IMG/VR virus record: IMGVR_UViG_3300022851_000003
Reading direction: 5' to 3' (one strand)
Origin: a virus
DNA length: 59,477 nt
The notes under the pieces: model-generated
Told to the model about the DNA's origin: nothing
Seen by the model: only the letters and a program-made list of their open reading frames with translations
Database searches by the model: none
Made by a program: the position numbers and the translations under genes
In this document: piece after piece, positions 4,589 through 58,337 of the stretch
How the letters are laid out: each line of letters starts with the position of its first letter
How positions within the stretch are numbered: the stretch's first letter is position 1

Positions 4589-4591
4589 TCC

Positions 4592-19630: not shown

Positions 19631-19668
19631 CGTGTTACCCTGCGCCGCGCAGGGTAATTACTTGTTAG
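19631..19668. repeat. GC-rich palindromic element, copy 1
   Basis: cgtg TTACCCTGCGCcGCGCAGGGTAA ttacttgtta between convergent stops at 19625 and 19665; near-identical inverted copy at 43347-43384. Confidence 0.6.
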
Positions 19669-30463: not shown

Positions 30464-30515
30464 CTTATAAGAAATGTTTCACTTTTCAAAACCAATCAAA
30501 GTCAGGAAGACTCCC

Positions 30516-30539
30516 GTGGTCACCAAACTGGTCACCAAA
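30516..30539 (+). repeat. candidate integrase arm-type site, copy 2
   Basis: GTGGTCACCAAACTGGTCACCAAA overlapping the integrase 3' end. Confidence 0.45.
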
Positions 30540-31981: not shown

Positions 31982-32129
31982 TTCAAATAATCCTTGACTT
32001 AGCCGCTGGCAGGCACTATCGTGCATCCATACCGGTAACGGCCACCCTCACTGGGTTGGTTTGTAATCTGGAAATAGCTGATTGGGAACTTTCTTAGGGT
32101 ATAACAATCAGCGACGAAAACTTGGAACA

Positions 32130-32931: not shown

Positions 32932-33043
32932 GTTCCATCACTCCCATTGACCTGTGACTAACTCGAAATCGGTAAACATCGTCTCATTTTGAGACACAAT
33001 CTCATTCTGAGACAGCCAGAGTACAGGAAACGCGAACCAAAGT

Positions 33044-33060
33044 GAACGAAGTTGCGACAC
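33044..33060 (+). promoter_or_regulatory. TTGCGACAC motif, copy 1
   Basis: GAACGAAGTTGCGACAC; related copies at 44797-44817 and 54991-55021, all intergenic. Confidence 0.3.
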
Positions 33061-34060: not shown

Positions 34061-34107
34061 ACTTTGTCAGACGCAAACGCAATCCCGATAACCTAAAGGA
34101 TCGGATT

Positions 34108-35061
34108 ATGAAAGTTGCTGAATTAGACCTGTGTGGTGGCGTACGCGCTGCTTTTCCGTTTGCCTGCCCTTGGCGAACTGACCGGGAGTTACCTGAGACA
34201 ATGCCGCAGGGCTCGGTGGTGCGGCGATTGGAACCGTTTGACGATGGCGATGATGCCATCGTTGGCGATGATACCAACGATGGCATCATAACCGCGGGGC
34301 GCAAGCACGATAGGACGGGGCGTGATGATGCGCGGGGCGTCGGTGATGATTCGGAGCGATACGCAGCTCTGGCGGACGTGCTGGGTGATGATGACGCGAC
34401 GATGGATGAGCTGTGCGCCGCATTCCTCAGCGCATCGCGGGACGCTGTGCGTGGTGCCCTGGACGATGCGGAATCGGCCCTGCTTGCGGAGTCGTTCCAA
34501 GAGACCCTGCCCGCGCTCGAGAAGGCGTTGAAGCGATACTATCATAACAGAACCGGTAATGTCGACGATGCGGTGTCTTGGTGCGTGTCCGAGCTGTATA
34601 CGAGCGTGGTCGATGCGGTGTTGCGGGGTCGTCTTGCAGTCCCGGCCAATGCTAGCCAATGGATCGGCAGCGCTCGCAAAATTCGAGGTGGCTATTGGAG
34701 CTCCAACCAGATCGTGATAGATGGAATGCCCGTAGCGCTGTTCGGGTGTGATGACACGGCTAACGATCACTACGAAAGTAGCCACCTCGATAGCGATGAC
34801 ACAATCCGCGTCTCTCGCCTGCGTCTGGATAACGAGCAGTTTGCTAAACATCTCGTTTCGTTGTACGAACTCGGTGCGCAGTGTGACGACGCACCGGGCT
34901 GGGTAGTCGAATCCCTTTGCCTGCTAGTGGAGCATCCTACCGCTACGCAGTCAGAATACGCCGCACAACGTGGAGTCACGGTGGCATGGTGGAAGCGGTC
35001 GCTAGTCGACATCCGCAAAGCAATCCGGTTCGGCGCGTTGCTAGGCGTATTGGATTGCTAA
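34108..35061 (+). CDS. hypothetical acidic protein
   Basis: 317-aa ORF with AAAGGA RBS; followed by a strong terminator. Confidence 0.5.
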   Translation: MKVAELDLCGGVRAAFPFACPWRTDRELPETMPQGSVVRRLEPFDDGDDAIVGDDTNDGIITAGRKHDRTGRDDARGVGDDSERYAALADVLGDDDATMDELCAAFLSASRDAVRGALDDAESALLAESFQETLPALEKALKRYYHNRTGNVDDAVSWCVSELYTSVVDAVLRGRLAVPANASQWIGSARKIRGGYWSSNQIVIDGMPVALFGCDDTANDHYESSHLDSDDTIRVSRLRLDNEQFAKHLVSLYELGAQCDDAPGWVVESLCLLVEHPTATQSEYAAQRGVTVAWWKRSLVDIRKAIRFGALLGVLDC

Positions 35062-35073
35062 GAAACGAGAAAA

Positions 35074-35105
35074 CCCCGCGTGACACACAATCACGCGGGG
35101 TTTTT
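35074..35105. terminator. intrinsic terminator (bidirectional)
   Basis: CCCCGCGTGA-cacacaa-TCACGCGGGG followed by TTTTT; A-run upstream. Confidence 0.6.
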
Positions 35106-43407: not shown

Positions 43408-43617
43408 ATGCCTCTTCCCGATCTGACGACTCGCCAGCAATCCACTCTCATCAACAAGGTGGATCACAACTGCCGTCGAAATGGCAAGAGATTCCTGCGT
43501 GATCTCGGCGGAACTGGGCACGCCGCTGAACTCGACGCGCAATTACAAATCGCCCGTAACAATCCCGATGCGGTGAAAGCCGCCGAACTCTTTACGAAGG
43601 AGAAAGATCGGAAATGA
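43408..43617 (+). CDS. small protein co-transcribed with serine recombinase
   Basis: 69-aa ORF; stop overlaps recombinase start. Confidence 0.4.
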   Translation: MPLPDLTTRQQSTLINKVDHNCRRNGKRFLRDLGGTGHAAELDAQLQIARNNPDAVKAAELFTKEKDRK

Positions 43618-44438
43618 AAGTCATAGGATATGGTCGTGAATCGACCGCCGACCAATCGATTTCTGCCGAAGTGCAGCAGCGACAATGCCGCGAGTGGTTT
43701 GACCGAACATTCAAGGACAATCCTGACGCGAAGTTTGTGCGAATGCTCAACGACGAGTCCGTCTCAGGCAAGACACGCCTGTTCCAACGTCCGCAGGGGA
43801 GTCTCCTGTTGACCATGCTCGAACGAGGCGACACCGTCGTCGCGTCCAAAATGTCACGGATGTTTCGATCCATGCCCGACACGGTCAACACGCTCGACGT
43901 GTTCAATGAAGCCGGCATCAAGGTCGTGCTGCTCGACATCGGCATGGACTTCGACACGCCAGTGGGCAAACTAATCTTCCACATCCTCGGGGCAGTCAAT
44001 CAGTTTGAACGCGAACTAATCTCCGAGCGGACCAAGGAAGCTCTCGCCCAGCTCCGTGAACGTGGCCAATACCTCGGCTCACCACCGCCGGGGTGGAAGT
44101 TCGACAGCAAGCGGACCAACGGGATTCGGGAACTGATCCCTGACATGGACCGCCGCACCTTCGGGGAATACTCCCTCGATCAACTGGTCGAAGGCCGATC
44201 CGCCAAGTCGATTGCCTGCGAGATCGAAGCACTATTGCGGCGCGAGCACATCCAACGACACGGCACCAACCTGAAGGAAAAACGAGAGAAGATCGCGTTC
44301 TCCGACACCGATGTCGTTCGACTCGCCGCCTTTGCAGTGGCCGGGTTCCCGCCGATCAATAGCACGGCGCTGAAAAAAGTCCTCGGTGTCAATCCATTCC
44401 GAGTTGAAACCCTGCGGCAACTGGCAGCGTCCGCCTAA
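43614..44438 (+). CDS. serine recombinase (resolvase/invertase family)
   Basis: N-terminal VIGYGRESTADQS with catalytic Ser context; resolvase-like core through QFERELISERTKEAL; C-terminal extension. Confidence 0.75.
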   Translation: MKVIGYGRESTADQSISAEVQQRQCREWFDRTFKDNPDAKFVRMLNDESVSGKTRLFQRPQGSLLLTMLERGDTVVASKMSRMFRSMPDTVNTLDVFNEAGIKVVLLDIGMDFDTPVGKLIFHILGAVNQFERELISERTKEALAQLRERGQYLGSPPPGWKFDSKRTNGIRELIPDMDRRTFGEYSLDQLVEGRSAKSIACEIEALLRREHIQRHGTNLKEKREKIAFSDTDVVRLAAFAVAGFPPINSTALKKVLGVNPFRVETLRQLAASA

Positions 44439-44725
44439 CCGGACTTCGAGCCGATGAATTCTTTCGCCCAGCGGATCGTGCTGTAGCGGACGTTGCCGAT
44501 CCACTGGATCTTCAGTGTCTTGGAATGCTTCTTCTTCTTCCGTGAGAGCCCGCCGGTTGCCCATCGCTGATACGTGCGATACGTGCAATTGATGACACCC
44601 GCCTTCTCCATCGCTTTCGCAAGCTGCGGTAGCGTCATCAGGGTTGTCTCCTCAGCGACATCCTGATCGCCCCAAATCTCTTGCGCCTCGTGGCTTGTAG
44701 CCACCGTCTTCTTCGTCGCAGTCAT
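44435..44725 (-). CDS. HTH DNA-binding protein (excisionase/MerR-like)
   Basis: ORF 44435-44776 begins with TTG; ATG at 44725; segment MTLPQLAKAMEKAGVINCTYRTYQRWATGG. Confidence 0.45.
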   Translation of the reverse strand: MTATKKTVATSHEAQEIWGDQDVAEETTLMTLPQLAKAMEKAGVINCTYRTYQRWATGGLSRKKKKHSKTLKIQWIGNVRYSTIRWAKEFIGSKSG

Positions 44726-44796
44726 GCGATCATTCCCACCATGGTGTGCTGAAACTGCCCTTCCGTGAGCAAACAAAACTGTACAAATCTTAACGA

Positions 44797-44817
44797 CTTT
44801 ATACGAAGTTGCGACAC
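44797..44817 (+). promoter_or_regulatory. TTGCGACAC motif, copy 2
   Basis: CTTTATACGAAGTTGCGACAC in the divergent region before the structural arc. Confidence 0.35.
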
Positions 44818-44916: not shown

Positions 44917-46068
44917 ATGCCTGTCGAAGACACCACCAACGACGACGCGATTGACAACGAAACCGATGTCGTAGTCGACGATGCGATCGATCAAACCGAC
45001 GTGGCCTCGGTCGATGACCAAGCGGTCGATGCGGTCGACGACAACGCGATCGATGAAGTGGGTGTTGGCGCAAACGCTACCGATGATTCCGCCGCCGATG
45101 ATTGGCAAGCGCCCTATCGCGAACTCGGTTTTGAAAACCTGGAGTCGCCCGAGCAGGCCCAGCAACGCGTCATGGAATCGCTGCGTCAAGAGCGGATGCG
45201 TGCCCAGGAAGCCGTTCAACAGGCGCGTTACTTCCAAACCGCCTACACCAATCACGTCGGGCAAGCCTCTCCTGCGCAGCCCGATACGCCGACCGCTCCC
45301 GAGCAACCCTCTTCGTTGTTCGCCCAGATGGCATCCGATTGGCCCGAGATTGCCCAAGACGAGATCGATCCGTTCATCGAAAAGGATGACAACGGACGGG
45401 CGACCGGATGGAAGAACGGCACGCCCCCGAGTCTGATCGAGAAATCGAACGCTTACATTCGCGCCCGTGCCAAGTGGGACGAAGTTGTCAGCGATCCACG
45501 ACGCCTCTCCGAAGCGATCGAGCAACAGTTCCAAACGATGCTCGACTCACACCTCGATGGTCGACTGGAACAACGCGAGCAGGTCACCACCGAACAGCGC
45601 GCCGAACAGGAATTCCTCACCAGCAACTCGGATTGGCTGTACGAAAAAGACCCGTACTCCGGCCAGCCATCGAACCAACCGACCGCCGCCGGCCGCCAGT
45701 TCCATTCGATCTTCGAGTCCACGAAGGAGCAGTACGGCGTGACCAACATGGCCAAACGGATTCAACTCGCCACGCAGTTATTCCAAGCACAACAAGCCGC
45801 CGCCGGAATCACACCCAACCAACCTGCCGCTGCGCCAGTTCCCGCTCGCCCCGCTACGGTGCCTGCCGGTCAACAACAACCCGCTGCGACTCAAACCACC
45901 GCCGCCGATGTCCGCCGTCAAATGCTCGGTCAACGCAACGGCGCTCCCGCTCGACCAACTTCCGCCGCCGGTGTGAACGATGGACCGGGCGGTTCACCCG
46001 CTGGCGCATCACGCATGTCCTATGGGCAATTGGTCGCAAGCGGAATGAAACAAGAGGGCACGTTATAG
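44917..46068 (+). CDS. hypothetical acidic protein (possible scaffolding protein)
   Basis: 383-aa ORF, very acidic N-terminus, Gln/Ala-rich helical middle; first gene of late arc. Confidence 0.45.
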   Translation: MPVEDTTNDDAIDNETDVVVDDAIDQTDVASVDDQAVDAVDDNAIDEVGVGANATDDSAADDWQAPYRELGFENLESPEQAQQRVMESLRQERMRAQEAVQQARYFQTAYTNHVGQASPAQPDTPTAPEQPSSLFAQMASDWPEIAQDEIDPFIEKDDNGRATGWKNGTPPSLIEKSNAYIRARAKWDEVVSDPRRLSEAIEQQFQTMLDSHLDGRLEQREQVTTEQRAEQEFLTSNSDWLYEKDPYSGQPSNQPTAAGRQFHSIFESTKEQYGVTNMAKRIQLATQLFQAQQAAAGITPNQPAAAPVPARPATVPAGQQQPAATQTTAADVRRQMLGQRNGAPARPTSAAGVNDGPGGSPAGASRMSYGQLVASGMKQEGTL

Positions 46069-46139
46069 CGAGACGCCACGGCGGACTTTGAAGCCGTCGC
46101 CTCCACATCTCCGATTACGAATCACAGAGGAACGTTACG

Positions 46140-47303
46140 ATGCCCGAACAGGTACTCGGACTTTTTGACGGGCGGCTAACCGAACGCCAACTCCAGTCAA
46201 ACCGCACCAACATTCTCGAGGGCATCACCGATGCCTGTACCCGCAACCTGCAAATGATGGCCCTGCTTCAGCAATCGGGCAACATTTTGTACGGACAAGG
46301 TGGGTTCGGAATGTTCTGGAAGATCAAGCACAAGTTGCACCGACTGATTGGCAGCAACGGCGAACGTGCGCGTAACTACAACCAGGTCAACCAGTACAAG
46401 ACCGCTCGGTTGGACTATCGCGGTTACGAAGTCAACGACACGATCAGCCGCAAGGAACTCAAGCAGAACCGTGGCGACTCGGCGGTCATTAAGATCTTCG
46501 ACGACTTCGAGCAAAACCTCATCACGTCCATGGAACAGGGGCTCGGCCCGCAGTTCTACGGCGATGGTGACAACGTCGCCAATCCCGATAGCTGGCACGG
46601 TCTGTTGTCGATGGTTCGCCAGAACGGGGAAACCATCAACGCCGCGACCAATACCGCACGGGCTCGCAACGGTGCCGACAAGGTCGTCTCGCCGACGGGA
46701 ACCTACGCCGGATTGGAATGCGGTCTTGGTGAATACGGGGGCGCTCAAAACGAGACCAACGTGACCTGGCCGGAAGGAACCGCTGGCACCGAGTACGACT
46801 TCTGGTCGCCGCTCATGCTGCAATGGGACGGAACCGGATTCGGCACGTCCGCCTCGCCGACCGATGGGGAGAAACTTGTTGACGCGCTGCAGTATGGATT
46901 GATCCATGCCCAACGCAACACCAACAAGAACGGTGCGATCTCCAACTTCTGGACCGATCGCACAAGTTTCTTCTCGCTCAAACGCCACGCCACTTCGTTG
47001 CAAACGATCGAAGTCACCACCGGCGGCGACCTCTACAAACTCGGCTTCAAAAACACGATTGAAGTCGACGGCGTGACCTGCTCATTCGAGAACGCGATCC
47101 CCGTTGGATACGGTTTCGGAATGAACATGGCCGACATGGAACTGCGATGCCTCGATGACCAGATGTTCGAGATCGACGGGCCGGAATGGGACATGGATCT
47201 GCAACTCTGGAAGACCGCCGTTCAAACGAACAGCAACCTCGTCTTCCGCAGCCCTCGCAACTGCCTGTTCCTGTTGCCGGCGTCGGCCATCGTCGCTGCC
47301 TAA
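46140..47303 (+). CDS. hypothetical protein (possible major capsid protein)
   Basis: 387-aa ORF; assignment by size and position only. Confidence 0.4.
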   Translation: MPEQVLGLFDGRLTERQLQSNRTNILEGITDACTRNLQMMALLQQSGNILYGQGGFGMFWKIKHKLHRLIGSNGERARNYNQVNQYKTARLDYRGYEVNDTISRKELKQNRGDSAVIKIFDDFEQNLITSMEQGLGPQFYGDGDNVANPDSWHGLLSMVRQNGETINAATNTARARNGADKVVSPTGTYAGLECGLGEYGGAQNETNVTWPEGTAGTEYDFWSPLMLQWDGTGFGTSASPTDGEKLVDALQYGLIHAQRNTNKNGAISNFWTDRTSFFSLKRHATSLQTIEVTTGGDLYKLGFKNTIEVDGVTCSFENAIPVGYGFGMNMADMELRCLDDQMFEIDGPEWDMDLQLWKTAVQTNSNLVFRSPRNCLFLLPASAIVAA

Positions 47304-47395
47304 GCCTCGCTGTTGATTGTCGCCACGCCCGCACACCGGGCGTGGTTGTTTGCCCTCCATCCTGAACCAATCCAAAACCTTCCGCGAGGAATCCT

Positions 47396-47986
47396 ATGTC
47401 AGTTATCAAAGACGGTGTCACCGTCATCCGCCCAGGCGAAGCGCTCATGGGCACCCATGAAACACGCTTGGTCAACTCCGATCTGGAAGGCCGCGAAGTC
47501 GTTATCTCTCACGAGAACGTCATCGACGCCTCCGATCCCAAGCTGGTTGCCACCGCGATCGGTCGACGGACCCACGCTCGCATCATGCGAAACACCACCG
47601 GCTCCAAGCTCAACCCCGGTGAGATCGTCACGATCGACCTCAGTGCGGGGCTTGCTGGAACCGGCAAGGCATCGTCGCTCGGTGGTGCAGAAGACCGCTT
47701 CTGTTATGTGGTCGACCCGTTGTTGCCTACTGCGACGGGCTGTCCCGACGACGACCTGTTCCTGGCTTACTACCGAGGCCCGGCCAAGGTGTTGATGAAC
47801 GGCACCGGGATTGACCTCAGCGCCGGCGAGGGGATTCAGTTCACGTCCGGCGCCAGCGGTCACCCGGCCATCGTTGACGGATCGCCAGTCGATGGGACTC
47901 TCATGGGCACCTTCCTGGTGGACTCGCTTGCGGCGGCCAACCTCGACCAACTCGTTGAAGTGATCTTGCATCCCGAGTGGGAATAG
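47396..47986 (+). CDS. hypothetical protein
   Basis: 196-aa ORF. Confidence 0.45.
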   Translation: MSVIKDGVTVIRPGEALMGTHETRLVNSDLEGREVVISHENVIDASDPKLVATAIGRRTHARIMRNTTGSKLNPGEIVTIDLSAGLAGTGKASSLGGAEDRFCYVVDPLLPTATGCPDDDLFLAYYRGPAKVLMNGTGIDLSAGEGIQFTSGASGHPAIVDGSPVDGTLMGTFLVDSLAAANLDQLVEVILHPEWE

Positions 47987-47995
47987 GAAGCCGCC

Positions 47996-48586
47996 GTGCC
48001 CCGCCCTGCTGACGAACCTGCTTTCACGCCCGAGCATCCGCCGGGCGACGAAAAGTTCTGCACGCTATGCGGGGAAGAAAAACCCATCGACGAATTCCAC
48101 GTCGATGAGTCGGCTCATGACGGACGCAAGTCCAATTGCAAGGCGTGCCGATCACTTCAGCACGCCGAAGATGTGGAGTCTAAGGTCGACCCCCGCCTCG
48201 CCAAGATTGAAGAGGCAGGACTCGAAGCGCTCGACGCCTTCGCGGGTGGCGGATCATTCAACCCGCACACCCAAGAGCTGATCGACGGGTTTATGAGATT
48301 CCTGGGCGGTCACTACGGCCTGGTGAAACTGACGATGGCCCACTACCACGCGGCCAAACCAGGCAGTGCCGAGCGAGGGAAGACACTCGATAAAATCTAC
48401 CGGCTGATCGCCGCTGAGGACAAGCAGGATGGCTCGCTCGACAAACTTGACCGACGCCAACTCGAAGCCCTCGTCGTCAGCATCGGCACCAAAGCCGGGA
48501 TGCTGCCCAAGCCGAACGACACGCTGTCTCTCGATCACCCCGAAACCGTCAACGCGATCGCCCGTTCCAAAGGCGACGCACTATGA
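47996..48586 (+). CDS. zinc-ribbon protein (possible terminase small subunit)
   Basis: CTLCGEEK...CKAC; directly upstream of and overlapping the large terminase start. Confidence 0.35.
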   Translation: MPRPADEPAFTPEHPPGDEKFCTLCGEEKPIDEFHVDESAHDGRKSNCKACRSLQHAEDVESKVDPRLAKIEEAGLEALDAFAGGGSFNPHTQELIDGFMRFLGGHYGLVKLTMAHYHAAKPGSAERGKTLDKIYRLIAAEDKQDGSLDKLDRRQLEALVVSIGTKAGMLPKPNDTLSLDHPETVNAIARSKGDAL

Positions 48587-51441
48587 TTGACGACATCGAA
48601 TTCAGTGACATCGATCTTTCGACACACCTCGACACCGCCAACGAGATGCAGTCGGGCAGCGAAGCCAACGACTACGTGATCGACGAGTATCACCTGCACA
48701 AGATGCACTCCGCAGCGTCGGAGATCCAGCGCCGGGACATGGAGGCGATGCGGATCTATCGCCCCTCCAAAATCCAAGAGCAGTACCACGCATCCACTGC
48801 CAAGGAGACCGTGTTCGTTGCCGGGAACCAAATCGGCAAATCCATTGCCGGATACTCGGAAGACGGACGAGCTGCCGGTGGATGCGACCCGTACGGCAAG
48901 TACCCCGAGAAAGATGGCATCCTGGCCATCGTGGTCTACAAGGAATCGCAGATCAGGCTGAACACCTATCGGTATCTCCTCAAGCCCGGTGCGTTCGACA
49001 TCATCCAAGACGAAGAGACCGGCATCTGGAAACCCTATTATCCCTGGGTTCCCTCCGATGTTGCTCGCGCCGATCAACGGCGGCCCGCCCCACCGATCCT
49101 TCCACCGCGAATGATTAAGAGAATCCACTGGAAGTCCAAGATGGGCAACGTCCTGTCTCGGATCGACATGGAGAACGGTTGGGAGATTCACGTCTTCTCG
49201 TCGACCGCGAAACCAGATGCCGGGTTCCAAGCCGACCTCGTTCATATCGATGAAGACATCGCCAACGAAGAATGGTACGTCGAGATGATCGCCCGTCTCT
49301 CGATCCGCAAGGGACTCCTGCGATGGACCGCCCTACCGCTGTTCGATAACGACGCGCTGCCTCGTATCGTCGAACGGGCCGACGACGAAGCGGAGAAGCA
49401 CGCACGCGGCGGACCTGTGCCTACCACGACGGTCGTTCGCGGAACCATTTTCGATAACCCGTACCTGACCGACGATACCCGCGAAGAAAACATCAAGCGA
49501 TGGAAGGACGCGGGCGACGATGTCTACCGGCAACGTGCCCTCGGAGAACTCATCACCGACACGGTTCGGATGTACCCGACGTTCACGCCGGAAATCCATG
49601 CCGTCCAACGTTACGGCGAATCGCATCCTGAGTTGTTCGGCGAGTACCTTCGCACCCGTCGAATCCCCGACGATTGGTGTCTGAGATTGTTTGTTGACCC
49701 TGGGTTCTCCACCTGTGCCGCGTTGCTGTTCGCGACCCTGCGACCCGAGGGCGGCGACGACTCCGAACCAATGATTCACGTTGCTGTGCGTGAAATCTAT
49801 CGCCAGCAATGTGACGCCTCGATCTTTGCCCAACTCGCCTCGCAAACCGTTGGCGATCGATGGTTGCAAGCGATGGTCATCGACGCCCACGGTGGTCGAC
49901 TCACCGGCATCGGCGATGGTCGGCGTCCACAAGAGATCTACGAAAGCGAACTGGCCGAACGAAACGTCGTGTGCGTGGAGACCGGCTCTCGCTTCCGTGC
50001 TGGCTGCGACGACATCGTCTACCGGGAAACCGCACTGCGACAACGGTTGATCGTCTCGCCAGTCACCGGGCTACCGGAGTTTATGTACGACGAGGAGATG
50101 TGCCCGAACCTTGAAAAAGAAATGGTGCGGTTCCGAAAGCTGAGAACCCGTGGCGTCATCACCGATAAAGGCAACCGCAAAGCATTTACGCACGCTGTCG
50201 AGTGTTTCTGTGACCAAACCGAAGTCCTTACTGAAAGTGGCTGGAAGCGTTTTGCAGACGCCAGTATCAGCGACCGTTTAGCGACCGTGAACTTGGATAC
50301 CGATACGCTTGAGTTTCAGCATCCATCTCGAATTGTTGAAAGACCTCACAACGGACCGATGGTTCATGTTCACGCACAGAAGCTCAATGCGATGGTCACT
50401 CCTAATCATCGGATGGTTTACTACTCCGACACCGCAAGGCGAAAAAAGACAGGTCCATCTATCTGTTTCGCGGGCGACCTGTCTCCAAGCTATGCGTTAA
50501 AGCTGGCGGCAAAAAACTGGAACGCAGTTTCACCAAAGACATTCGTGCTGCCTGCGGTAGAACTGGATTCGCGACCAGGTAAGCCTGCCGAATTAAACAG
50601 ACTCGACTTCGCCCGGTTCATGGGATGGTACATCGCCGAAGGCTCTGCGGACAAAACAGTGCGTTGCCCTGGAAAGGGCTATCGCGTGTGCATTGCACAG
50701 AGAAAAGAACACGGCATCAACGCGATTCGCGAAATGCTTTCAAAGCTACCGTTTCATTTCGTTGTATCGGGCGACTGCTTCGTGATCTCCAACAAGCAAC
50801 TGTGGTCGTACCTTCGCCAGTTCGGAGACTGCTACACCAAGTTCGTTCCAGACTGGGTGCGACACGGAAGCAGAGAAGTCATCGAGTCGTTTATGGAAGG
50901 CGCTATGGCTGGCGATGGGTGGGTACAAAAGAACGCTCGACGATACGGAACCTCCAGCCCCCGCCTCGCCGACGACATCCAAGAACTATTCCTCAAACTC
51001 GGTTGTTCTGCATCTGTCACTGTTCGGTCGGCAGAGACGGCCGTGTCAAGGATGGTGAGAGGAAAGCCCTGCAAATCTACCTGTGATTTCTTCACGGTAA
51101 TCGAGAGGCTTGTTCCGAGCGTCCGCCTTAGTGACGCACACGACAAGCCGAATTTCAGCACAACGAACTACACCGGAAAGGTGTTCTGCGCAACCGTCCC
51201 CAATGGGACTCTTGTTGTAAGACGCAACGGCCAACCGCTCGTCGCTGGCAATTGCTATGAGTACGCAGCCGCCGACGAACTCAAGTACCACGCACCTCCC
51301 GCCCGTCGAACCCGCGAAACCCCCGGCGAACGTCGTGTTCGGATGTGGCGGGAACGCCAAGCGAAGCGACGAAAACAAATGGGTGGCGCTCTCGGCGTCA
51401 TCCATGGCGGCATCGACCTGTCTGCTCCCATGCCCACTTAA
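48583..51441 (+). CDS. terL: terminase large subunit interrupted by an intein
   Basis: P-loop-like VFVAGNQIGKS, Walker B-like ADLVHIDE, nuclease-like RLFVDPGFS and AMVIDAHGG; 350-aa intein in the C-terminal region. Confidence 0.65.
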   Translation: MIDDIEFSDIDLSTHLDTANEMQSGSEANDYVIDEYHLHKMHSAASEIQRRDMEAMRIYRPSKIQEQYHASTAKETVFVAGNQIGKSIAGYSEDGRAAGGCDPYGKYPEKDGILAIVVYKESQIRLNTYRYLLKPGAFDIIQDEETGIWKPYYPWVPSDVARADQRRPAPPILPPRMIKRIHWKSKMGNVLSRIDMENGWEIHVFSSTAKPDAGFQADLVHIDEDIANEEWYVEMIARLSIRKGLLRWTALPLFDNDALPRIVERADDEAEKHARGGPVPTTTVVRGTIFDNPYLTDDTREENIKRWKDAGDDVYRQRALGELITDTVRMYPTFTPEIHAVQRYGESHPELFGEYLRTRRIPDDWCLRLFVDPGFSTCAALLFATLRPEGGDDSEPMIHVAVREIYRQQCDASIFAQLASQTVGDRWLQAMVIDAHGGRLTGIGDGRRPQEIYESELAERNVVCVETGSRFRAGCDDIVYRETALRQRLIVSPVTGLPEFMYDEEMCPNLEKEMVRFRKLRTRGVITDKGNRKAFTHAVECFCDQTEVLTESGWKRFADASISDRLATVNLDTDTLEFQHPSRIVERPHNGPMVHVHAQKLNAMVTPNHRMVYYSDTARRKKTGPSICFAGDLSPSYALKLAAKNWNAVSPKTFVLPAVELDSRPGKPAELNRLDFARFMGWYIAEGSADKTVRCPGKGYRVCIAQRKEHGINAIREMLSKLPFHFVVSGDCFVISNKQLWSYLRQFGDCYTKFVPDWVRHGSREVIESFMEGAMAGDGWVQKNARRYGTSSPRLADDIQELFLKLGCSASVTVRSAETAVSRMVRGKPCKSTCDFFTVIERLVPSVRLSDAHDKPNFSTTNYTGKVFCATVPNGTLVVRRNGQPLVAGNCYEYAAADELKYHAPPARRTRETPGERRVRMWRERQAKRRKQMGGALGVIHGGIDLSAPMPT
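50203..51252 (+). mobile_element. intein with LAGLIDADG homing endonuclease
   Basis: Block A CFCDQTEVLTESG, block B TPNH, LAGLIDADG motifs FMGWYIAEGS and FMEGAMAGDG, C-terminal VAGN followed by Cys +1. Confidence 0.7.
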
Positions 51442-51464
51442 CCCTCTTCCTCGATTGGAAAACC

Positions 51465-51803
51465 ATGCCAAAGCCCGCGATCAACCCAACCGCCACCGAC
51501 ACCACCGATACGCCGTGGAAAATGCCACAGCCCCACCGTGGGCAAACGGTCATCTTCCATCGCCTCGGACTCAAGAACGAAGTCACTGACGTGCTCGCCA
51601 TCGTGCTCGCCGTCAGCCCGGTCAACGTCGAAATGTCGATCAACGGAATCGTTTACGAATCCATTCGGCACTGCGACGACCCTCGCGCAAAGGGACGGCC
51701 GGAACTGCGAGACCCTGGAACCTGGGACTTCAGTGACCACGAGAAGGAACTCTGGGATCGCATCGCCAAGCTGGAAGAACAGATGGCGGAACTCCTGAAG
51801 TAG
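51465..51803 (+). CDS. hypothetical protein
   Basis: ORF 51345-51803 overlaps the terminase end; ATG at 51465 chosen. Confidence 0.4.
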   Translation: MPKPAINPTATDTTDTPWKMPQPHRGQTVIFHRLGLKNEVTDVLAIVLAVSPVNVEMSINGIVYESIRHCDDPRAKGRPELRDPGTWDFSDHEKELWDRIAKLEEQMAELLK

Positions 51804-51837
51804 ACACCACCACCCCCTACGCCTGTACCACGCAACC

Positions 51838-53994
51838 ATGACCGACTTCGATCCCATCACCGCCGACGGCAATAACTCGAAACGACGATTCGCCCCATTG
51901 GTGGAGCGTTGGAAGGGGGCCATCAAGGCTGCCACAGAGCACCGTAAAAAGGAATTCGATTGCGTGGCCGATGAGGCACGTCGGTTCTTCGACGGCAAAG
52001 CGTCGGACTTTTGGGAGGGCATGGCCAAGCAGGCGTCCGAATCCACGGACCAAGGATTCCTGGCGGGATCGTCGCTCGTTCCTCAGTTCAAGATCTCACT
52101 CAACCGGATGTTCGATGCGGTCGCCATGTTCGGCCCCGCACTGTACCACCAAAACCCAACGATCGCGGTCACGTCGCGGCCGTCCACTGGCGTCTCGATC
52201 GACACGTTCTACGCGGGCAACCCGCAAGCGACTCAGATCCTCGATCTTATCCCGGCATTGCAGTCGGGACAGATCCAAGACCCTAACGTCGGATTCATGG
52301 TCACGCAGCTCCAGCAGCAGTACGACAATGCCATTCGAGCGAACCAACGACGCATCGACATCAACAACGATCACGCGATCTTGATGCAGTCGCTCTCCAA
52401 TTACTACCAAAACGAAGGGCACAAGCAGGATGAAGCACGCCTCGCGATCACCGAGGCCATCGTCACCGGGCTCGGACTGCTCGAACCCATCCTTGAGTCT
52501 TCACCCGCTGGCGGACCACGTATCCCCGCTTGTCGCTTCATCTCCAACAAAGACTTCATCATCGATCCCGATGCGTGCTACTGGCGTGACGTGACCTGGA
52601 TCGCTGTCCGTCGCGCCAGCCCGCGAAACGTCGTCGAACAGAAATTCAATTTGCCACCGGGTTCACTCAAGGGAAAGCACGCCTCCAACACGGCACTGAC
52701 CGGCGAAAACCCACGGCAAAAGAAACGCCACGGCAACGGCAAGGTCGTCAACCGATCGCACGAAATCGTGGAATACTACGATCTCTTTTCCAAGAACGGC
52801 GCAGGCCAGAACCTCCAAATCCTCGAAAACCAAAAGGGACTCTCGCCAGAACTGGAACTGCTCGGTGACTTCGTCTACTTGGCGATCTGCCCGGGCTGCC
52901 ATTACCCGCTGAATTTGCCTGACGAACTGCCACTCGTCGCACCTCCCGAGATGGTGATCGGGGAAGACGGTCTTCCAATGATGCCGGAGATGTCGGCGCC
53001 TCCCGAACCCAACCCGGCGGCACTCGAAGCGACCGCTTGGCCCGCTCCGTTCTGGGATGACGTTCACACCGATGGCGGTTGGCCTATCTGTCGACTGACG
53101 TTCTACGAGAACCCGGGCAAGACCTGGCCCCTGTCCATGGCCGCGCCGTGCATCGGCGAAATGAAGTTCATCAACTGGTGCATGTCGTTCCTCGCCGATG
53201 GGGTCGCTGCCGGATCCAAGATCTACGTCGCCTGCCAGAAGTCCGCTGCGGAGAACCTCAAGTCCCAATTGGTCGGTGGCGGCGGACCCTTCACGACGAT
53301 CGAACTGGAAGCAATCACCGGCAAGAACATCAACGAGATCATCTCGTTCTTGACCGCTCCCACGTTCAACGTCGACATCTGGAACATGATCGCCCAAGTC
53401 AACGACCAGATCGACAAGCGACTCGGACTCAACGAGCTGATGTACGGGTCGTCGTCACGACAAATGCGATCGGCCGCCGAGGCCCAGTACCGTCAATCCA
53501 ATATCAACATCCGTCCCGACGACATGGCGTCCCGCGTGGAGGATTGGTTGTCCATCACTGCGGTTCGTGAGATTCAACTACTGCGATGGGACGGAACGTA
53601 CGAAGATGTCCAACCGATCATCGGGGACATCGGAGCCCGCGTCTTCGCCGAACAGATTCAAACCCGCAGCGTCTCCGATGTGACACGAGAGTTTCACTTC
53701 CGAGTCGAAGCCGGCACGGCACGCAAGCCGAACAAAGACACCCGAATCGCACAACTCAACGAACTCTCGCAATACCTCCTGCCGACCGCCCAACAAGCGA
53801 TGTCCATGGGACTGCCGGGGCCGTTCAATGCGTTCATGGAAGACCTCGGTCGTGCGATGGACATTGATCCAACACGCTACATGATCGACGCGGAAGACCA
53901 AGCCATGATGCAAGCCCAGGCGATGCAGCAGGCCACCATGAACCAGCAAGCGATGCAAGCCAACGAGGCAAACGCTCCAGCGGAGGCGGCATGA
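51838..53994 (+). CDS. putative portal protein
   Basis: 718-aa ORF just downstream of the terminase; assignment by size and position. Confidence 0.45.
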   Translation: MTDFDPITADGNNSKRRFAPLVERWKGAIKAATEHRKKEFDCVADEARRFFDGKASDFWEGMAKQASESTDQGFLAGSSLVPQFKISLNRMFDAVAMFGPALYHQNPTIAVTSRPSTGVSIDTFYAGNPQATQILDLIPALQSGQIQDPNVGFMVTQLQQQYDNAIRANQRRIDINNDHAILMQSLSNYYQNEGHKQDEARLAITEAIVTGLGLLEPILESSPAGGPRIPACRFISNKDFIIDPDACYWRDVTWIAVRRASPRNVVEQKFNLPPGSLKGKHASNTALTGENPRQKKRHGNGKVVNRSHEIVEYYDLFSKNGAGQNLQILENQKGLSPELELLGDFVYLAICPGCHYPLNLPDELPLVAPPEMVIGEDGLPMMPEMSAPPEPNPAALEATAWPAPFWDDVHTDGGWPICRLTFYENPGKTWPLSMAAPCIGEMKFINWCMSFLADGVAAGSKIYVACQKSAAENLKSQLVGGGGPFTTIELEAITGKNINEIISFLTAPTFNVDIWNMIAQVNDQIDKRLGLNELMYGSSSRQMRSAAEAQYRQSNINIRPDDMASRVEDWLSITAVREIQLLRWDGTYEDVQPIIGDIGARVFAEQIQTRSVSDVTREFHFRVEAGTARKPNKDTRIAQLNELSQYLLPTAQQAMSMGLPGPFNAFMEDLGRAMDIDPTRYMIDAEDQAMMQAQAMQQATMNQQAMQANEANAPAEAA

Positions 53995-54356
53995 GAAAGC
54001 GGACGCAACGAATTCACGATGGTCGTGTCGAGCTAACAATCAGCCGACATGCCATCGATCGGTTCCGCTTTCGGGTTGCCAAGATTCGGCCAGATCTCAT
54101 TCCCGCCGAAGTCGCCAGGATGATGCGGGACGTGACGCCCATCCACCGAAACAGCCACGACGACAACAAAATCTACCTGTCTCACAAAGAATGTGTCTTC
54201 GTCATTGCCCGTCGATCCGGTGTGCTCGTCACCGTTCTCCCGCCCGATGGTGAAAGCACCTCGCGATTCTCCAAGTCCTACAAGGACCAACGTTCTGAAC
54301 GACGCACTCGAAAGCTGCGTTCATTCGCTCCCCATCAACGCCCCCGACAGGAATGA
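53991..54356 (+). CDS. hypothetical protein
   Basis: 121-aa ORF. Confidence 0.45.
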   Translation: MRKRTQRIHDGRVELTISRHAIDRFRFRVAKIRPDLIPAEVARMMRDVTPIHRNSHDDNKIYLSHKECVFVIARRSGVLVTVLPPDGESTSRFSKSYKDQRSERRTRKLRSFAPHQRPRQE

Positions 54357-54362
54357 TCCACC

Positions 54363-54980
54363 TTGACTATCAAGCAGACCATCGACGCCTTCGACGCCGC
54401 ATGTGACAAGCACGGCATCTCGCTGACGCAACGTGAATCCATGCTGCAAGAATCACTCGACAAGAATGTGACCGGTCGGATGCTCGACATGGTTCTCAAT
54501 GGCGAGTCGCCGCGAATGGCACTAATGCTCGCGATGCAGCAACCACCCGGCACCAAGGGAACCGATTCCGTGTTCAATGCTGCCGAAAATCGACGCGTCG
54601 GCCAACAGTACAGTGACGAATACATGAGCAAGATCACCGCGATCGCCAAGCGGGCAGGCGTCGACACCACCGGCAAAACCTACAACGGGCAACTCGGAAA
54701 GTATCACGACCCGCACGCCTGGGTATCAGGACTCGGCGACGTTCGCGCCGCAGCCAAGGCCAAGGGCTACCGAATCGAGGGCGCGGTCAACGTCGATCAC
54801 CTCGATGAGAACGCACCGCCCAAGCCTGCCCCGAAATTGTCCGAGAGATTGATTCGCGAGCAAACCGAAAACGTGGTGGCTCAGAACCCAGGGATCGCCG
54901 CTAAGGTTGCACAGTCACCCAGGGCGGCGAAGACCCTGCGAGAGCAGATCATCGACCGGCACGGCTCCAAGCGAACCTGA
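54363..54980 (+). CDS. hypothetical protein
   Basis: 205-aa ORF. Confidence 0.45.
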   Translation: MTIKQTIDAFDAACDKHGISLTQRESMLQESLDKNVTGRMLDMVLNGESPRMALMLAMQQPPGTKGTDSVFNAAENRRVGQQYSDEYMSKITAIAKRAGVDTTGKTYNGQLGKYHDPHAWVSGLGDVRAAAKAKGYRIEGAVNVDHLDENAPPKPAPKLSERLIREQTENVVAQNPGIAAKVAQSPRAAKTLREQIIDRHGSKRT

Positions 54981-54990
54981 TCGCTTACCA

Positions 54991-55021
54991 AACTGAACGA
55001 ATTTATACGAACTTGCGACAC
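54991..55021 (+). promoter_or_regulatory. TTGCGACAC motif, copy 3
   Basis: AACTGAACGAATTTATACGAACTTGCGACAC. Confidence 0.35.
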
Positions 55022-55112: not shown

Positions 55113-55469
55113 ATGCCCCACCCACCACTCGGCCTGACTGCTCGCGCAACGATCGACCGTGTAATCGACGGCGATACGGTAGTCTTATCGCATCCGTGGC
55201 CGATGACGCTCCGGCTGAAGGATTGCTGGGCACCCGAGCTGCGTGGCGAGCAATCGGAAGCTGGGGTTGAATCCCGCGATGCTTTGGTTGACATGCTCGA
55301 CCCGCCTTGTGAAGTCGTGGTGCATATCCCGACTGGCGAGGCTCGCTCATTGTCGGATGTGATTTCTTTCGGTCGGCCCGTGGCAAATATCTGGCGGCTG
55401 GGAATCGATGCGACTTTGAGCGACGAGTTGATCAACCTCGGATTTGCGACAGCGGAGAAGGAATCTTGA
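55113..55469 (+). CDS. staphylococcal-nuclease-like (SNase/thermonuclease-fold) protein
   Basis: ORF 55032-55469; ATG at 55113; TIDRVIDGDTVVL matches the SNase signature. Confidence 0.5.
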   Translation: MPHPPLGLTARATIDRVIDGDTVVLSHPWPMTLRLKDCWAPELRGEQSEAGVESRDALVDMLDPPCEVVVHIPTGEARSLSDVISFGRPVANIWRLGIDATLSDELINLGFATAEKES

Positions 55470-55690
55470 TCCAACTCCCTTGGCAAATCATTGCCGCGTC
55501 CATTGCGTTGTTCGGCCTGCATTTAATCATCGGCTACCTCCGCCGGACCAACTGCGACGAGCGGATCGAAGTTGCCAAGCGGCAACAGCACCGCGATTCG
55601 ATAAGCATCTATCGCGAAGCCTATCTGGCGGGATGGGTCCACGGGGACCAGGACTCAACCAAACTCACAGAGGAGATCGACCGTGCGTGA
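55466..55690 (+). CDS. small membrane protein (holin- or spanin-like candidate)
   Basis: 74 aa with N-terminal helix WQIIAASIALFGLHLIIGYL and charged C-terminus. Confidence 0.45.
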   Translation: MIQLPWQIIAASIALFGLHLIIGYLRRTNCDERIEVAKRQQHRDSISIYREAYLAGWVHGDQDSTKLTEEIDRA

Positions 55691-56927
55691 TTTTATCCTG
55701 ATTGTCTTGCTTTTTTTGCCGGTGCCTGTATTTGCGCAACCGCAGACGTCATTGGGTCGCATCTCGCAATCCAACATTGGCCGGCAGACCGACGCATCAA
55801 TCGGGCTAGTCCGGCTGAAGTCGGACCAACCGATCCCGGCGGCAGTGAGAGAGGCGGCGAAGTCAGTCTGCCGCGTGAATATCCGTGGCCGTGACGGCGG
55901 CGGTTACGCAGGATCGGGAACGTACATTGGCGAACGAACGATCGTCACAGCTCGGCATGTTGTCGCCGAAGGCGTTTTGACCACGACCACTGTTGACTTC
56001 GCAGGTCAGGTTTTCTCCGGTCGCGGATTCCTGGCGAACAAGACGGCCGATCAGTATTTGATTCAGATTGCCGAGACGCCCAACGTTCGGCCGATCCCGC
56101 TTGCCAGCCGACAGCCCGAACCGGGTGAAGTCGTCTTCGTCATGGGATTCGGCCACAACAAGTTTGACATTTGGTCGGCTCGTCTCACGTCCTACGGCTC
56201 AGCGGTTAGCCAACAAGACTCAGGGTTTTACACAGGCCGACGAAGCCGATCGGGCGACAGTGGCGGGGCGGTACTCAACGCGGCTGGCGAATACGTAGGC
56301 ACGATTTGGGGCGGAGGCAAGAACGACGCTGTTGCGGTCACGTACACACAGACTCGATCGTTTTTTCAGCGGTCAGGATTGCTCGGTCGATTGTTCGGCA
56401 GACGTGGCACGCCGGTGACCGAGGAGCAAACGATCACCGCAGGATGTTTCGGTGGCCAATGCACGCCACGCCCAAGACAACCATCACCGCAGCCATCGCC
56501 GCAGCCATCAACGAACGATCAAGGCTACGTGCCTGGGCCTGACTACTTTGGACAGCCGCCATCTAATCCGCCGGTGGACGCGCCGGCACCTTCTCTTGAT
56601 GTCGACGGACTGGTCGACGCGATCGCGGATCGAATCGGCACTCCGAAGTGTGAGTGTGATTGTGAATCAAAGCCGGGGGCACCTGGGCCGGTTGGCCCCA
56701 AGGGCGATGCCGGGCCACGCGGGCCGCCCGGTGATTCGGCAAGCATCACGCAAGAGCAACTCGAACAAGTTGCGGTCATGGTTCTTAGGCAGATGCCGAA
56801 GCCATCTCCGCAACGAGTCATGCTCGTCAATGGTGCAACCGGCAAAGTACTCGACGACGAAACATACCAAGATGGCGAACCGATCGTGATCGATTTCCAA
56901 AGGGTCATCAATGCCGCAACCAAATGA
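55683..56927 (+). CDS. secreted trypsin-like serine protease with collagen-like repeat
   Basis: Signal-peptide-like ILIVLLFLPVPVFAQP; His motif TARHV; Ser motif GDSGGAV; GAPGPVGPKGDAGPRGPPGD and QPSPQPSPQPS repeats. Confidence 0.65.
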   Translation: MRDFILIVLLFLPVPVFAQPQTSLGRISQSNIGRQTDASIGLVRLKSDQPIPAAVREAAKSVCRVNIRGRDGGGYAGSGTYIGERTIVTARHVVAEGVLTTTTVDFAGQVFSGRGFLANKTADQYLIQIAETPNVRPIPLASRQPEPGEVVFVMGFGHNKFDIWSARLTSYGSAVSQQDSGFYTGRRSRSGDSGGAVLNAAGEYVGTIWGGGKNDAVAVTYTQTRSFFQRSGLLGRLFGRRGTPVTEEQTITAGCFGGQCTPRPRQPSPQPSPQPSTNDQGYVPGPDYFGQPPSNPPVDAPAPSLDVDGLVDAIADRIGTPKCECDCESKPGAPGPVGPKGDAGPRGPPGDSASITQEQLEQVAVMVLRQMPKPSPQRVMLVNGATGKVLDDETYQDGEPIVIDFQRVINAATK

Positions 56928-56988
56928 AGAAGCGTGCAAAACCCCCGAACAATTATTGCACTTAGTCACCGCGCTGAAAGGTGAATAA

Positions 56989-57294
56989 GTGCCAGCCGAG
57001 CAATTGCCAGAAAGCCCCGTCATTGGCGATGGGGTTGTAACGTTACCTCCAATCGAAAGAGAAATTGCAATGGACATTTCCCCAGGCTTCGGAACCTTGC
57101 TGATGAATGAATCGGCGGGCAACGTGCAAAACACCAACCTCAGCGGCCGAAACATCGCGAACATCGCAATGGGTTCGCTTCAAGCCGGTGTGGCCCGGAC
57201 TCATAACGAAATGGGCACGGAAGAAAGTCGTGCGATCAGTGGTGTGATGGCCACGCCGATTGCCCCGCCTTCGATGCAACCCGCTGGCGCTTAA
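56989..57294 (+). CDS. hypothetical protein
   Basis: 101-aa ORF. Confidence 0.4.
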   Translation: MPAEQLPESPVIGDGVVTLPPIEREIAMDISPGFGTLLMNESAGNVQNTNLSGRNIANIAMGSLQAGVARTHNEMGTEESRAISGVMATPIAPPSMQPAGA

Positions 57295-57564
57295 GTGAGT
57301 GAGTTTGACGACGCCGCACAGGCGATCATCAAAGCAAACCAACAAGCTCGTGAGGGTTTCCATGCGAAATCCTTGCAGCTTGTTTCTTCCATTCTTGCAG
57401 ACACGGAGAAAGAACTTGACGACTTCAACGCCGGACTGGAAGAAGAGATTCGAGACATTTTTGCACGGTCGGGGGAAGATCCAACAGCTAGCGGAACTGA
57501 CGGCAGTGGAGTCGATGCAAGCGACAGCGGAGGAGCAACGCAAGAATCAGGAAGCGGAATCTAG
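57295..57564 (+). CDS. hypothetical helical protein
   Basis: 89-aa ORF. Confidence 0.4.
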   Translation: MSEFDDAAQAIIKANQQAREGFHAKSLQLVSSILADTEKELDDFNAGLEEEIRDIFARSGEDPTASGTDGSGVDASDSGGATQESGSGI

Positions 57565-57883
57565 CAAAGTAAGAAAACAGCTTTGGGATTGGGATGAGTC
57601 CGTGAAAGACGATGACGAAATGAGGCAAACAATCTTGGGCGATACCAACACGACATACCCCGCGCCGATCATCATGCAATCGCCGCCTCAGCAGGAAAAG
57701 CAATCACTGTTGCCCGCCGTAGCGATGGCCGCAGTCGCCGGTCTCGGCGGATACCTACTCGCGAATCACGATGACTCGCCGACACCAACGCCGCCCCCAG
57801 TGGCCCCGGTCAACTACACGGACGAAACAATCTCAGTCGGCCTTGGTCGCATTGAGGACTACCTCAAGAGCGATCCCAGATGA
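57515..57883 (+). CDS. membrane protein (start uncertain)
   Basis: Frame of ORF 57299-57883; internal ATG at 57515; helix LLPAVAMAAVAGLGGYLLA. Confidence 0.35.
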   Translation: MQATAEEQRKNQEAESSKVRKQLWDWDESVKDDDEMRQTILGDTNTTYPAPIIMQSPPQQEKQSLLPAVAMAAVAGLGGYLLANHDDSPTPTPPPVAPVNYTDETISVGLGRIEDYLKSDPR

Positions 57884-58278
57884 CAGTTTCAGAAGTAATC
57901 GAAAAGGCTTTCAATTACGGACTACCGACAGTTTTGTTAATCGGACTTGTATTCGGGATCGTGAAAGCAGTCGCATGGCTGGGGCCGAATTTCCTGACGC
58001 CGATCAAAGATCAGATCGTTATCCACCTTTCTAAGTTGGACTCGGCGATTGACTCAATGATGTTACTGATTCGTGGCCAAACGGACGCACTCGAGAAACA
58101 AAACCACGTTCTGCACCGGGTCGAAACGAGCATCGAGGAAGCAGGCAACGACGCTCACAGCAACACCGAAGTGCTCAACAGGATCGATCGCAACGTGCAA
58201 GACATCAAGCGAAACGCGACACGATTTTTTGAAGAATCACATACTGACTTTGAGCGGCATCACGACGACGAAGATTGA
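57880..58278 (+). CDS. membrane protein with N-terminal TM helix
   Basis: GLPTVLLIGLVFGIVKAVAWLG then coiled-coil-like region. Confidence 0.45.
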   Translation: MTVSEVIEKAFNYGLPTVLLIGLVFGIVKAVAWLGPNFLTPIKDQIVIHLSKLDSAIDSMMLLIRGQTDALEKQNHVLHRVETSIEEAGNDAHSNTEVLNRIDRNVQDIKRNATRFFEESHTDFERHHDDED

Positions 58279-58337
58279 ACCCGCACCAGCCTCCTTAGCC
58301 CACTACGCATCCAAAACCGCCTACTCCGACTTTTCTA

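Follow-up and report, generated by a model that had tools for sequence, protein, structure and literature searches.

Three co-oriented copies of a two-block intergenic element in an uncultured phage genome: candidate late promoters and a candidate phage sigma factor

Promoters of extracytoplasmic function (ECF) sigma factors carry AAC in the −35 block and CGT in the −10 block, with spacers of 14 to 17 nucleotides (nt) between them (PMC5758882). The autoregulatory sigX promoter has CGAC at −10, CGTC is common to several ECF sigmas, and the majority of ECF sigmas are autoregulated (PMC5758882). Among phages, phiEco32 and phage 7-11 place the promoters of their own sigma factors at equal genome positions, and the promoter sequences are wholly different: tAATGTAtA for phi32_gp36 and the two-block GTAAtg-N16-aCTA for gp47 of phage 7-11 (PMC8948821). 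Here, we describe an element that occurs in three intergenic copies, all in one orientation, in IMG/VR record IMGVR_UViG_3300022851_000003 (59,477 nt; hereafter the window, meaning the whole stretch of DNA analyzed). With somewhat better than even confidence, we read the three copies as phage-specific late promoters used by host RNA polymerase together with a phage sigma-like protein of 317 amino acids (aa). The window is a circular assembly, with bases 1 to 127 repeated at 59351 to 59477, and is the complete circular genome of an uncultured phage. No relative was found in the GenBank phage collection, either by DNA or by portal or capsid protein.

A first-pass annotation of this DNA had pointed to a box of 13 to 19 nt in three intergenic positions, sharing a core in a single orientation, and the 17- and 19-mers it quoted lie where it placed them. 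A pattern search of the whole window returned three exact matches to GAASTTGCGACAC and no more (33048 to 33060, 44805 to 44817, and 55009 to 55021), all on the plus strand and all intergenic. The same 13-mer had no match in 100 dinucleotide-preserving shuffles, which rules out a chance origin of the three copies. The annotation had named many extra copies inside coding regions as an outcome that would count against it. The 9-mer core TTGCGACAC was found four times where about one occurrence is expected, and the single additional copy, at 25525 on the minus strand within a coding region, is compatible with chance. The 19-mer at the second site (site 2) recurs with one mismatch at site 3 and with three mismatches at site 1, and nowhere else in the window. 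Weaker hidden copies were not apparent beyond the three sites: at up to three mismatches, the 13-mer gave 25 matches against 22.4 expected. An exact-pattern scan of IMG/VR returned near-identical strains and chance matches only.

The similarity between the copies reaches further than the box. A repeat finder extended it to 36 nt (Table 1), over which identity to site 2 is 86% for site 3 and 64% for site 1; the Smith-Waterman alignment of sites 2 and 3 has a z score of 13.4 against shuffles. In an ungapped register (site 1, GCGAACCAAAGTGAACGAAGTTGCGACAC; site 2, CTTAACGACTTTATACGAAGTTGCGACAC; site 3, CTGAACGAATTTATACGAACTTGCGACAC), 19 of 29 columns are invariant, including an AAC exactly 17 nt 5′ of CGACAC. 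Site 1 has diverged from the other two in its 5′ half and retains the distance of 17 nt from AAC to CGAC. The box as first proposed is thus real but too short, the element being a two-block unit of 29 to 36 nt, AAC-N17-CGACAC.

Of the three intergenic sites, site 2 is 99 nt upstream of the start of a scaffold-like gene (44917) and 57 nt from the start of a divergent gene for a 96-aa protein. Site 3 starts 6 nt past the stop of gene 54363-54980 and ends 91 nt before an in-frame ATG (55113) that opens an endonuclease-like gene, the first of the protease and tail block. The operon behind site 3 runs across the circular junction into tail genes 348 to 19625, and within the operon behind site 2 no terminator-like site stands out. 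Site 1 is about 94 nt from the start of leftward gene 32578-32931 and 1,048 nt upstream of the sigma-like gene. The approximately 1 kb to its right holds no credible open reading frame (ORF); coding scores there are poor, and the JGI gene calls on the identical contig L158 place no gene in it. The first-pass annotation had suggested a late promoter or activator site, with the second and third copies preceding the structural arc and the nuclease/membrane-protein cluster. Sites 2 and 3 do head structural or late operons, whereas site 1 precedes noncoding DNA and then the sigma-factor-like gene. The regulatory reading itself is supported in kind, since the copies are few, intergenic, co-oriented, 85 to 100 nt from start codons, and syntenic in relatives under phage-specific sequences, with "late" drawn from gene content only. 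The annotation also held that the element is distinct from a 22-bp motif class, and this is borne out: that class, ACCACCCC..CCACCTTG, sits 40 to 60 nt upstream of genes at 35.7 to 40.6 kb.

The capsid protein has hundreds of metagenomic homologues, which are abundant in marine and saline samples. We compared the window with contigs L062-65, L150, L149, L156, L066, and L067 (83%, 78%, 57%, 55%, 54%, and 54% capsid identity, respectively) and with 80 IMG/VR loci at 38 to 45% capsid identity; repeats in these relatives were sought by synteny-anchored comparison of matching intergenic places. Three places are conserved: one left of the 317-aa gene, one ahead of the scaffold/capsid operon, and one just past the stop of the gene downstream of the portal. 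Equivalents of sites 2 and 3 are present in L062, L150, L067, L149, and L156, and in each case the sequence is the phage's own. In L062, CAGCACTCTCGCTTCAATCTAATRCAATKTCGCGGGATATGCCACTC occurs upstream of the scaffold gene and directly past the stop of the homologue of the 205-aa gene (a 47-mer, 45/47 identical, z = 34.8). The L150 contig begins and ends within its own version of the element, CAGCACGCTACGAGCAATCTAACACAAT..., L067 has a 25-mer pair (AGYGATTCTRCGCTAGTCTCGTKGG, z = 8.3), L156 has a 23-mer pair (TTWCGCCATTCYTGGGAGGTTTG), and L149 has a weaker pair at the equivalents of sites 2 and 3. No such repeat was found at the matching places of relatives at or below 45% capsid identity. The spacing between element and start codon is steady, at 99 and 91 nt for the window, 91 and 83 nt for L062, and 96 to 113 nt for L149 and L156.

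Upstream contigs supplied the site 1 position for two of these phages. In L157, the upstream part of the L149 phage, the counterpart of the site 1 position holds a third copy (2132 to 2161). The combined L149/L157 phage has exactly three occurrences of TTCCYGT-N17-CGTCAG, one at each syntenic position, against an expectation of fewer than 0.1; by manual count, 12 of the 13 block positions are invariant, compared with 5 of the 17 spacer positions. L169 overlaps the L062 contig by 4.9 kb at 99.98% identity and represents the upstream part of that phage; it has a shortened third copy at the site 1 position (approximately 9120 to 9170). The elements of L062 (8649 to 8695) and L150 (1 to 48) differ in two discrete blocks (positions 7 to 14 and 29 to 41), with the spacer CAATCTAAYACAAT and the 3′ end GSCACTCCCAGCG kept, which looks like a specificity switch rather than drift. 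As judged from synteny, the three-site layout is ancestral to the subclade, and its sequence is homogenized within each genome and replaced between genomes.

With these relatives at hand, the element can be set beside the ECF promoters of Bacillus subtilis sigX, sigW, and sigM (PMC5758882). The AAC of the −35 block is invariant in the window copies and absent from the elements of the relatives, the L149/L157 phage having TTCCYGT instead; the −10 block begins with CG in both phages (CGAC in the window CGACAC, CGTC in the L149/L157 CGTCAG), at a fixed spacer of 17 nt that falls within the 14- to 17-nt range. The copies are close to their own consensus, and sites 2 and 3 have a short T run past the −35 block (AACGACTTTAT and AACGAATTTAT). 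The placement of one copy upstream of the candidate sigma gene agrees with the common self-regulation of ECF sigmas.

The 317-aa protein encoded behind site 1 is a candidate divergent ECF-like sigma factor. Its C terminus, as read from the translation, resembles sigma region 4.2, and the resemblance is clearer in the L157 homologue (...AAELGISVAAYKKRLQRVRSALR). An exhaustive homologue search returned only 18 relatives, several of them of 200 to 230 aa; a search of IMG/VR with the protein found the same species only, and a metagenome scan retrieved the L062-type upstream region. The window protein searched alone had no match, and profile comparisons were made with a 15-member alignment of the family. 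Nine of the 15 PDB profile matches were sigma factors, all aligned at the C-terminal region 4, with marginal E values of 0.03 to 0.9. Pfam Sigma70_r4 was matched by 3 of the 15 members (best E = 0.0013), as was Sigma70_r4_2 (3/15). Among 17 matched NCBIfam families, 10 were sigma-factor models, mostly of the ECF type (best, TIGR02937, E = 0.0013; SigE, 0.0019). In pairwise profile alignment with hhalign, residues 260 to 309 aligned with residues 136 to 184 of RpoE (P = 1.4e-4); the value was 0.002 for SigW and 0.068 for the LuxR-type control GerE. The protein also has an acidic N-terminal extension of about 100 aa with a conserved FPFxCPW motif.

We favor promoters that co-evolve with a phage-encoded specificity factor because the element has two blocks, a fixed spacer length, a freer spacer sequence, co-orientation with operons, and differences between relatives. 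We tie the 317-aa protein to the sites because site 1 lies upstream of its gene in the same orientation in three phages and because the blocks are ECF-like. Under this model, each site would consist of a −35-like (Y)(K)AAC, 17 nt, and a −10-like CGACAC, with extra conservation in the −10-proximal half of the spacer. The reader would be host core RNA polymerase carrying the 317-aa product as a very divergent ECF-like sigma. Site 2 would start the scaffold/capsid/terminase/portal operon, and from site 3 transcription would be restarted or boosted through the protease and tail genes up to a hairpin at about 19.65 kb, the probable end of late transcripts. From site 1, a rightward transcript would pass through a leader of about 1 kb into the 317-aa gene and stop at the terminator at 35.07 kb, giving the sigma-like protein positive feedback of the kind usual among ECF sigmas. 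Initiation at the sites, late timing, and the 317-aa protein as reader are all three inferred from sequence. A host sigma-70 or sigma-54 promoter was rejected; the hexamers misfit by eye, and consensus scans were silent at the sites.

The arrangement also recalls the phiEco32-like phages, with a divergent sigma of the phage's own (here a candidate), few promoters heading late operons, and promoter positions kept between relatives whose sequences differ completely. The portal of the relatives gives faint Pfam matches of the SU10/phiEco32 type. Unlike in those phages, there are three copies rather than six to eight, the sigma candidates have no detectable sequence relationship to each other, no gp79-like factor was identified, and the window system is known from sequence alone. 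Promoters of T7-like single-subunit RNA polymerases share other properties with the element, being contiguous, highly conserved over 19 to 23 nt, phage-specific, and co-oriented with genes, with specificity that shifts between relatives; TTATACGA resembles the T7 sequence TAATACGA. The window differs in having only three copies and no single-subunit RNA polymerase: no RNA polymerase family match was found among the large ORFs scanned (Pfam and PHROGs). The ORFs of 783 and 1,498 aa, which have no family assignment, both lie inside the tail module.

An alternative that we take seriously, while judging it rather unlikely, places the core promoter within the 85- to 100-nt leader and makes the element an upstream operator or activator site bound by a DNA-binding regulator of the phage. 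Either the 96-aa protein or the 317-aa protein, the latter as a classical activator, could be this regulator; once bound, it would turn on the late operons to the right and could also repress leftward genes beside sites 1 and 2. The long and constant distance from element to start codon argues for it, as do CG-containing units spaced at about one helical turn (in L149, TCGTCA recurs every 10 nt; TCTACGC and TCTCGTG in L067, and ACGAC and ACGAA in the window, are likewise separated by 10 nt), site 1 copies that look one unit (about 10 nt) shorter in two phages, and one unit inverted in L157 to give CTGACGAAACTCGTCAG, as suits a binding-site array. Several relatives keep a block resembling TTTGGCATTACTTG at 25 to 35 nt downstream of site 2, a possible core promoter, and the 96-aa gene is conserved right beside site 2, divergently transcribed. 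That protein, however, matches no recognizable DNA-binding family and has no usable structure model, and a homologue search with it returned only itself. Scans and reading by eye found no common sigma-70-type −35/−10 pair downstream of the three window sites, and the block-N17-block of L149/L157, with its variable spacer, is more in keeping with a promoter than with a repeat array. P2 Ogr and Mu C are late-operon activators whose sites are dyad-symmetric; the window element is asymmetric and two-block, and no RinA/ArpU-type protein was identified. The likeness to such activators, among which is staphylococcal RinA upstream of terS (PMC3152322), is one of layout: one to four sites lie directly upstream of packaging and morphogenesis operons, and a small phage-encoded factor (in the window, a candidate) reads them.

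Recombination-site, RNA-element, and neutral-repeat readings are improbable even taken together. That the element acts in RNA, as a put/nut-like antitermination signal, a processing site, or a leader structure of long operons, is a very faint prospect; its position at the start of long terminator-free operons, in their orientation, would suit such a role. There is no Rfam match and no stable hairpin in the element sequences, and sites 1 and 2 have no preceding plus-strand gene whose transcript could carry them. The variable blocks, moreover, became direct repeats between L062 and L150 (GCTACGAG occurs twice in L150) with no compensatory pairs, and a put/nut-like element was rejected on the missing Rfam match and compensatory changes. 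Slightly more doubtful again is a set of recombination sites for the serine recombinase 43614-44438 or for a weak tyrosine-recombinase-like ORF (30540-31706), in spite of a resolvase gene kept beside site 2 throughout the repeat-bearing subclade and found at the site 3 position in the distant relatives L104 and L153. All copies are direct repeats, so recombination would remove either 10.2 kb of capsid, terminase, and portal genes or the 11.8-kb replication block, and the window is collinear with contigs from many samples. Being asymmetric, the elements show none of the dyad symmetry that marks res, hix, gix, and lox sites, no copy has an inverted partner arm beside it, and separate long inverted repeats near the recombinase gene are better candidate sites; recombinase sites were rejected on orientation and missing symmetry. 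A stretch at site 2, TATACGAAGTT (44800 to 44810), equals 11 nt of the loxP arm, TATACGAAGTTAT, and recurs at 55004 to 55012 with one mismatch. We deem this a coincidence because the arm-like 11-mer at sites 2 and 3 is single, with no inverted partner flanking it. Least credible of the three is a lack of any regulatory role, the copies being neutral remnants of duplication or sequences that promote module exchange; their location at module boundaries might speak for this. Exchange linkers should be common to phages, and these sequences differ between phages and are alike within a genome, on which ground such linkers were rejected; direct repeats of 36 to 47 nt in a phage encoding RecT and an exonuclease should also be lost unless selected.

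Several observations weigh against phage-specific promoters read by the 317-aa protein, and some of them are also the points at which the system departs from known ECF systems. Every sigma match of the 317-aa family is sub-threshold and confined to region 4; region 2 was not detected in the profile searches, and the protein could be another helix-turn-helix regulator. The acidic N-terminal extension sets the candidate further apart. Single-sequence AlphaFold models of the 317-aa and 96-aa proteins had low confidence and were left unused; that of the 317-aa protein is all helical in the right places, with a mean pLDDT of 42. No anti-sigma gene was seen, and at about 1 kb site 1 is far from the sigma-like gene for an autoregulatory promoter. 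The leader of 85 to 100 nt is long, and a core promoter could lie between element and gene. Conservation runs through the −10-proximal half of the spacer, which is not a feature of ECF promoters, and the AAC/CG pattern with N17 is clear only in the window and the L149/L157 phage; the elements of L062, L150, L156, and L067 are not cleanly fitted by it. Window site 1 can also be aligned to site 3 as a 10-nt deletion variant, and the L062-type site 1 copy is about 10 nt shorter than its sites 2 and 3. Finally, the second promoter-like motif class (35.7 to 40.6 kb) could equally be the target of the sigma-like protein.

A broader proposal goes beyond the phage-specific promoters themselves, and we hold it only tentatively, leaning against it. 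The promoters would be rewritten in both blocks between close phages, as between L062 and L150, and the 317-aa protein would be the founder of an unrecognized phage sigma family that combines an ECF-like region 4 with an unrecognizable region 2 and an N-terminal FPFxCPW domain; the relatives would then form a natural series of mutually orthogonal sigma/promoter pairs, each acting at three fixed genome points. Should the favored promoter reading be correct, three short sequences and one protein would define the late transcription program of a widespread group of uncultured phages, a gene-expression map of the group could be had without culturing, a divergent sigma-like family now annotated as hypothetical would be singled out for study, and the relatives would offer naturally diverged promoter/factor pairs as possible orthogonal expression parts. 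No general principle would change, phage-specific late promoters and phage sigma factors being already well known.

Table 1. Positions of the three element copies and of the main features of the phage genome
Feature	Coordinates	Strand	Remarks
Site 1	33025..33060	+	AGGAAACGCGAACCAAAGTGAACGAAGTTGCGACAC; most divergent copy; AAC 33035-33037, CGACAC 33055-33060
Site 2	44782..44817	+	TACAAATCTTAACGACTTTATACGAAGTTGCGACAC; AAC 44792-44794, CGACAC 44812-44817
Site 3	54986..55021	+	TACCAAACTGAACGAATTTATACGAACTTGCGACAC; AAC 54996-54998, CGACAC 55016-55021
317-aa candidate phage sigma factor	34108..35061	+	First plus-strand gene downstream of site 1; C-terminal sigma-70 region-4-like helix-turn-helix, by weak and sub-threshold but consistent matches
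Terminator-like hairpin, strong and bidirectional	35069..35105	+	End of the site 1/sigma-like unit; terminator scan
96-aa protein	44435..44725	−	Divergent from site 2; position kept in relatives; helix-turn-helix-like pattern by eye
Operon downstream of site 2	44917..54980	+	Scaffold-like 44917-46068, major capsid protein 46140-47303, two 196-aa proteins, large terminase 48583-51441, portal 51838-53994, 121-aa and 205-aa proteins
Operon downstream of site 3, start	55113..59350	+	Endonuclease-like gene, trypsin-like protease 55683-56927, others
Tail module	0.3-19.6 kb	+	Gene map
Hairpin with T-rich tail	19632..19667	+	Directly past the last tail-module gene; also left arm of a long inverted repeat
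Recombination/early genes	20-33 kb	−	RecT, PD-(D/E)XK nuclease, RecU, CsrA; gene map
DUF932, clamp-like protein, small genes	35.9-43.6 kb	+	Gene map
Small serine recombinase (resolvase/invertase type)	43614..44438	+	Kept beside site 2 in the subclade

The noncoding DNA between site 1 and the sigma-like gene contains a segment (33450 to 33545; ...GGGATATATAGTATACAGCGGGGCCGGTCGGGGTCGGGCCACCCCCATCGACG) that is far more conserved than its surroundings, with counterparts at approximately 2780 to 2870 in L157, 9615 to 9690 in L169, and 1 to 50 in L168. Within it, a TATAAT-like box precedes a GC-rich hairpin. The segment matches no Rfam family, gives no folding signal, and may be an early promoter, an origin, or an attP. 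Across the same region on the minus strand (33445 to 34304) lies a fragment resembling an IstB/DnaC-type ATPase (P-loop, E = 2.8e-8), split over two frames. The fragment is absent from L157, strains L050 and L167 have a 14-bp junction instead, and L168 has a different plus-strand ORF, helix-turn-helix-like by eye, at its position. The stretch looks like an insertion hot spot and would be antisense to any site 1 transcript.

The second motif class, ACCACCCC-N5/6-CCACCTTG, has six plus-strand copies at 35.8 to 40.6 kb, 40 to 60 nt from start codons, and one inverted copy (35721 to 35749) that faces the minus-strand gene 35193-35666; its orientation therefore follows the gene, as for a promoter. 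A terminator hairpin immediately follows the copy at 36935. The L062 phage has different repeated motifs at the corresponding places, TGAACCYSCCTGGTGYTTCA and CACCCGCCTCGGCACTCGCCGGG. Inside gene 35193-35666, about four tandem repeats of a 15-nt unit (ACTGTCGGCGCTTCC) occupy 35380 to 35435.

Long inverted repeats (19632-20185/42794-43382) bracket the early/replication segment at 20.2 to 42.8 kb. They comprise two conserved blocks about 450 nt apart, with complementarity of 94% over 36 nt, 94% over 54 nt, and 95% over 37 nt; the right arm lies 230 to 800 nt upstream of the serine recombinase gene, and each block has hairpins and T-rich tails. These repeats could be duplicated terminators or inversion sites of the recombinase. 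In L104 (19621 to 20112, minus strand) and L153 (19472 to 20194, minus strand), a serine recombinase gene stands directly past the homologue of the 205-aa gene; in the window subclade it stands beside site 2. Long ORFs overlap on opposite strands at 30474 to 31997 (plus) and 30540 to 31706 (minus). The minus-strand ORF has the better codon usage and a weak tyrosine-recombinase match (Phage_integrase, E = 0.0011), so that the phage may carry an integrase besides the serine recombinase.

In the early leftward block, ORF 29287-29616 (minus strand) encodes a CsrA-family RNA-binding regulator (Pfam E = 1e-18). A full-length tRNA was detected by Rfam (48 bits, 85 nt), and not by ARAGORN, at 29510 to 29594 on the same strand. 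The tRNA lies inside this ORF just upstream of the CsrA domain, and the true start of the CsrA gene is therefore probably later than that of the ORF. A LAGLIDADG-type insert in the large terminase (48583-51441), probably representing an intein or a homing endonuclease, is shared with the L149 terminase and absent from those of L062 (600 aa) and L156 (582 aa). With regard to the host, metagenomic bins name Gemmatimonadetes, Gammaproteobacteria, and Peribacteria, with no consistent assignment; weak hints to Planctomycetes come from a DUF932 homologue in a Pirellulales metagenome-assembled genome and from DUF1580 (E = 0.08) in the search with the 96-aa protein.

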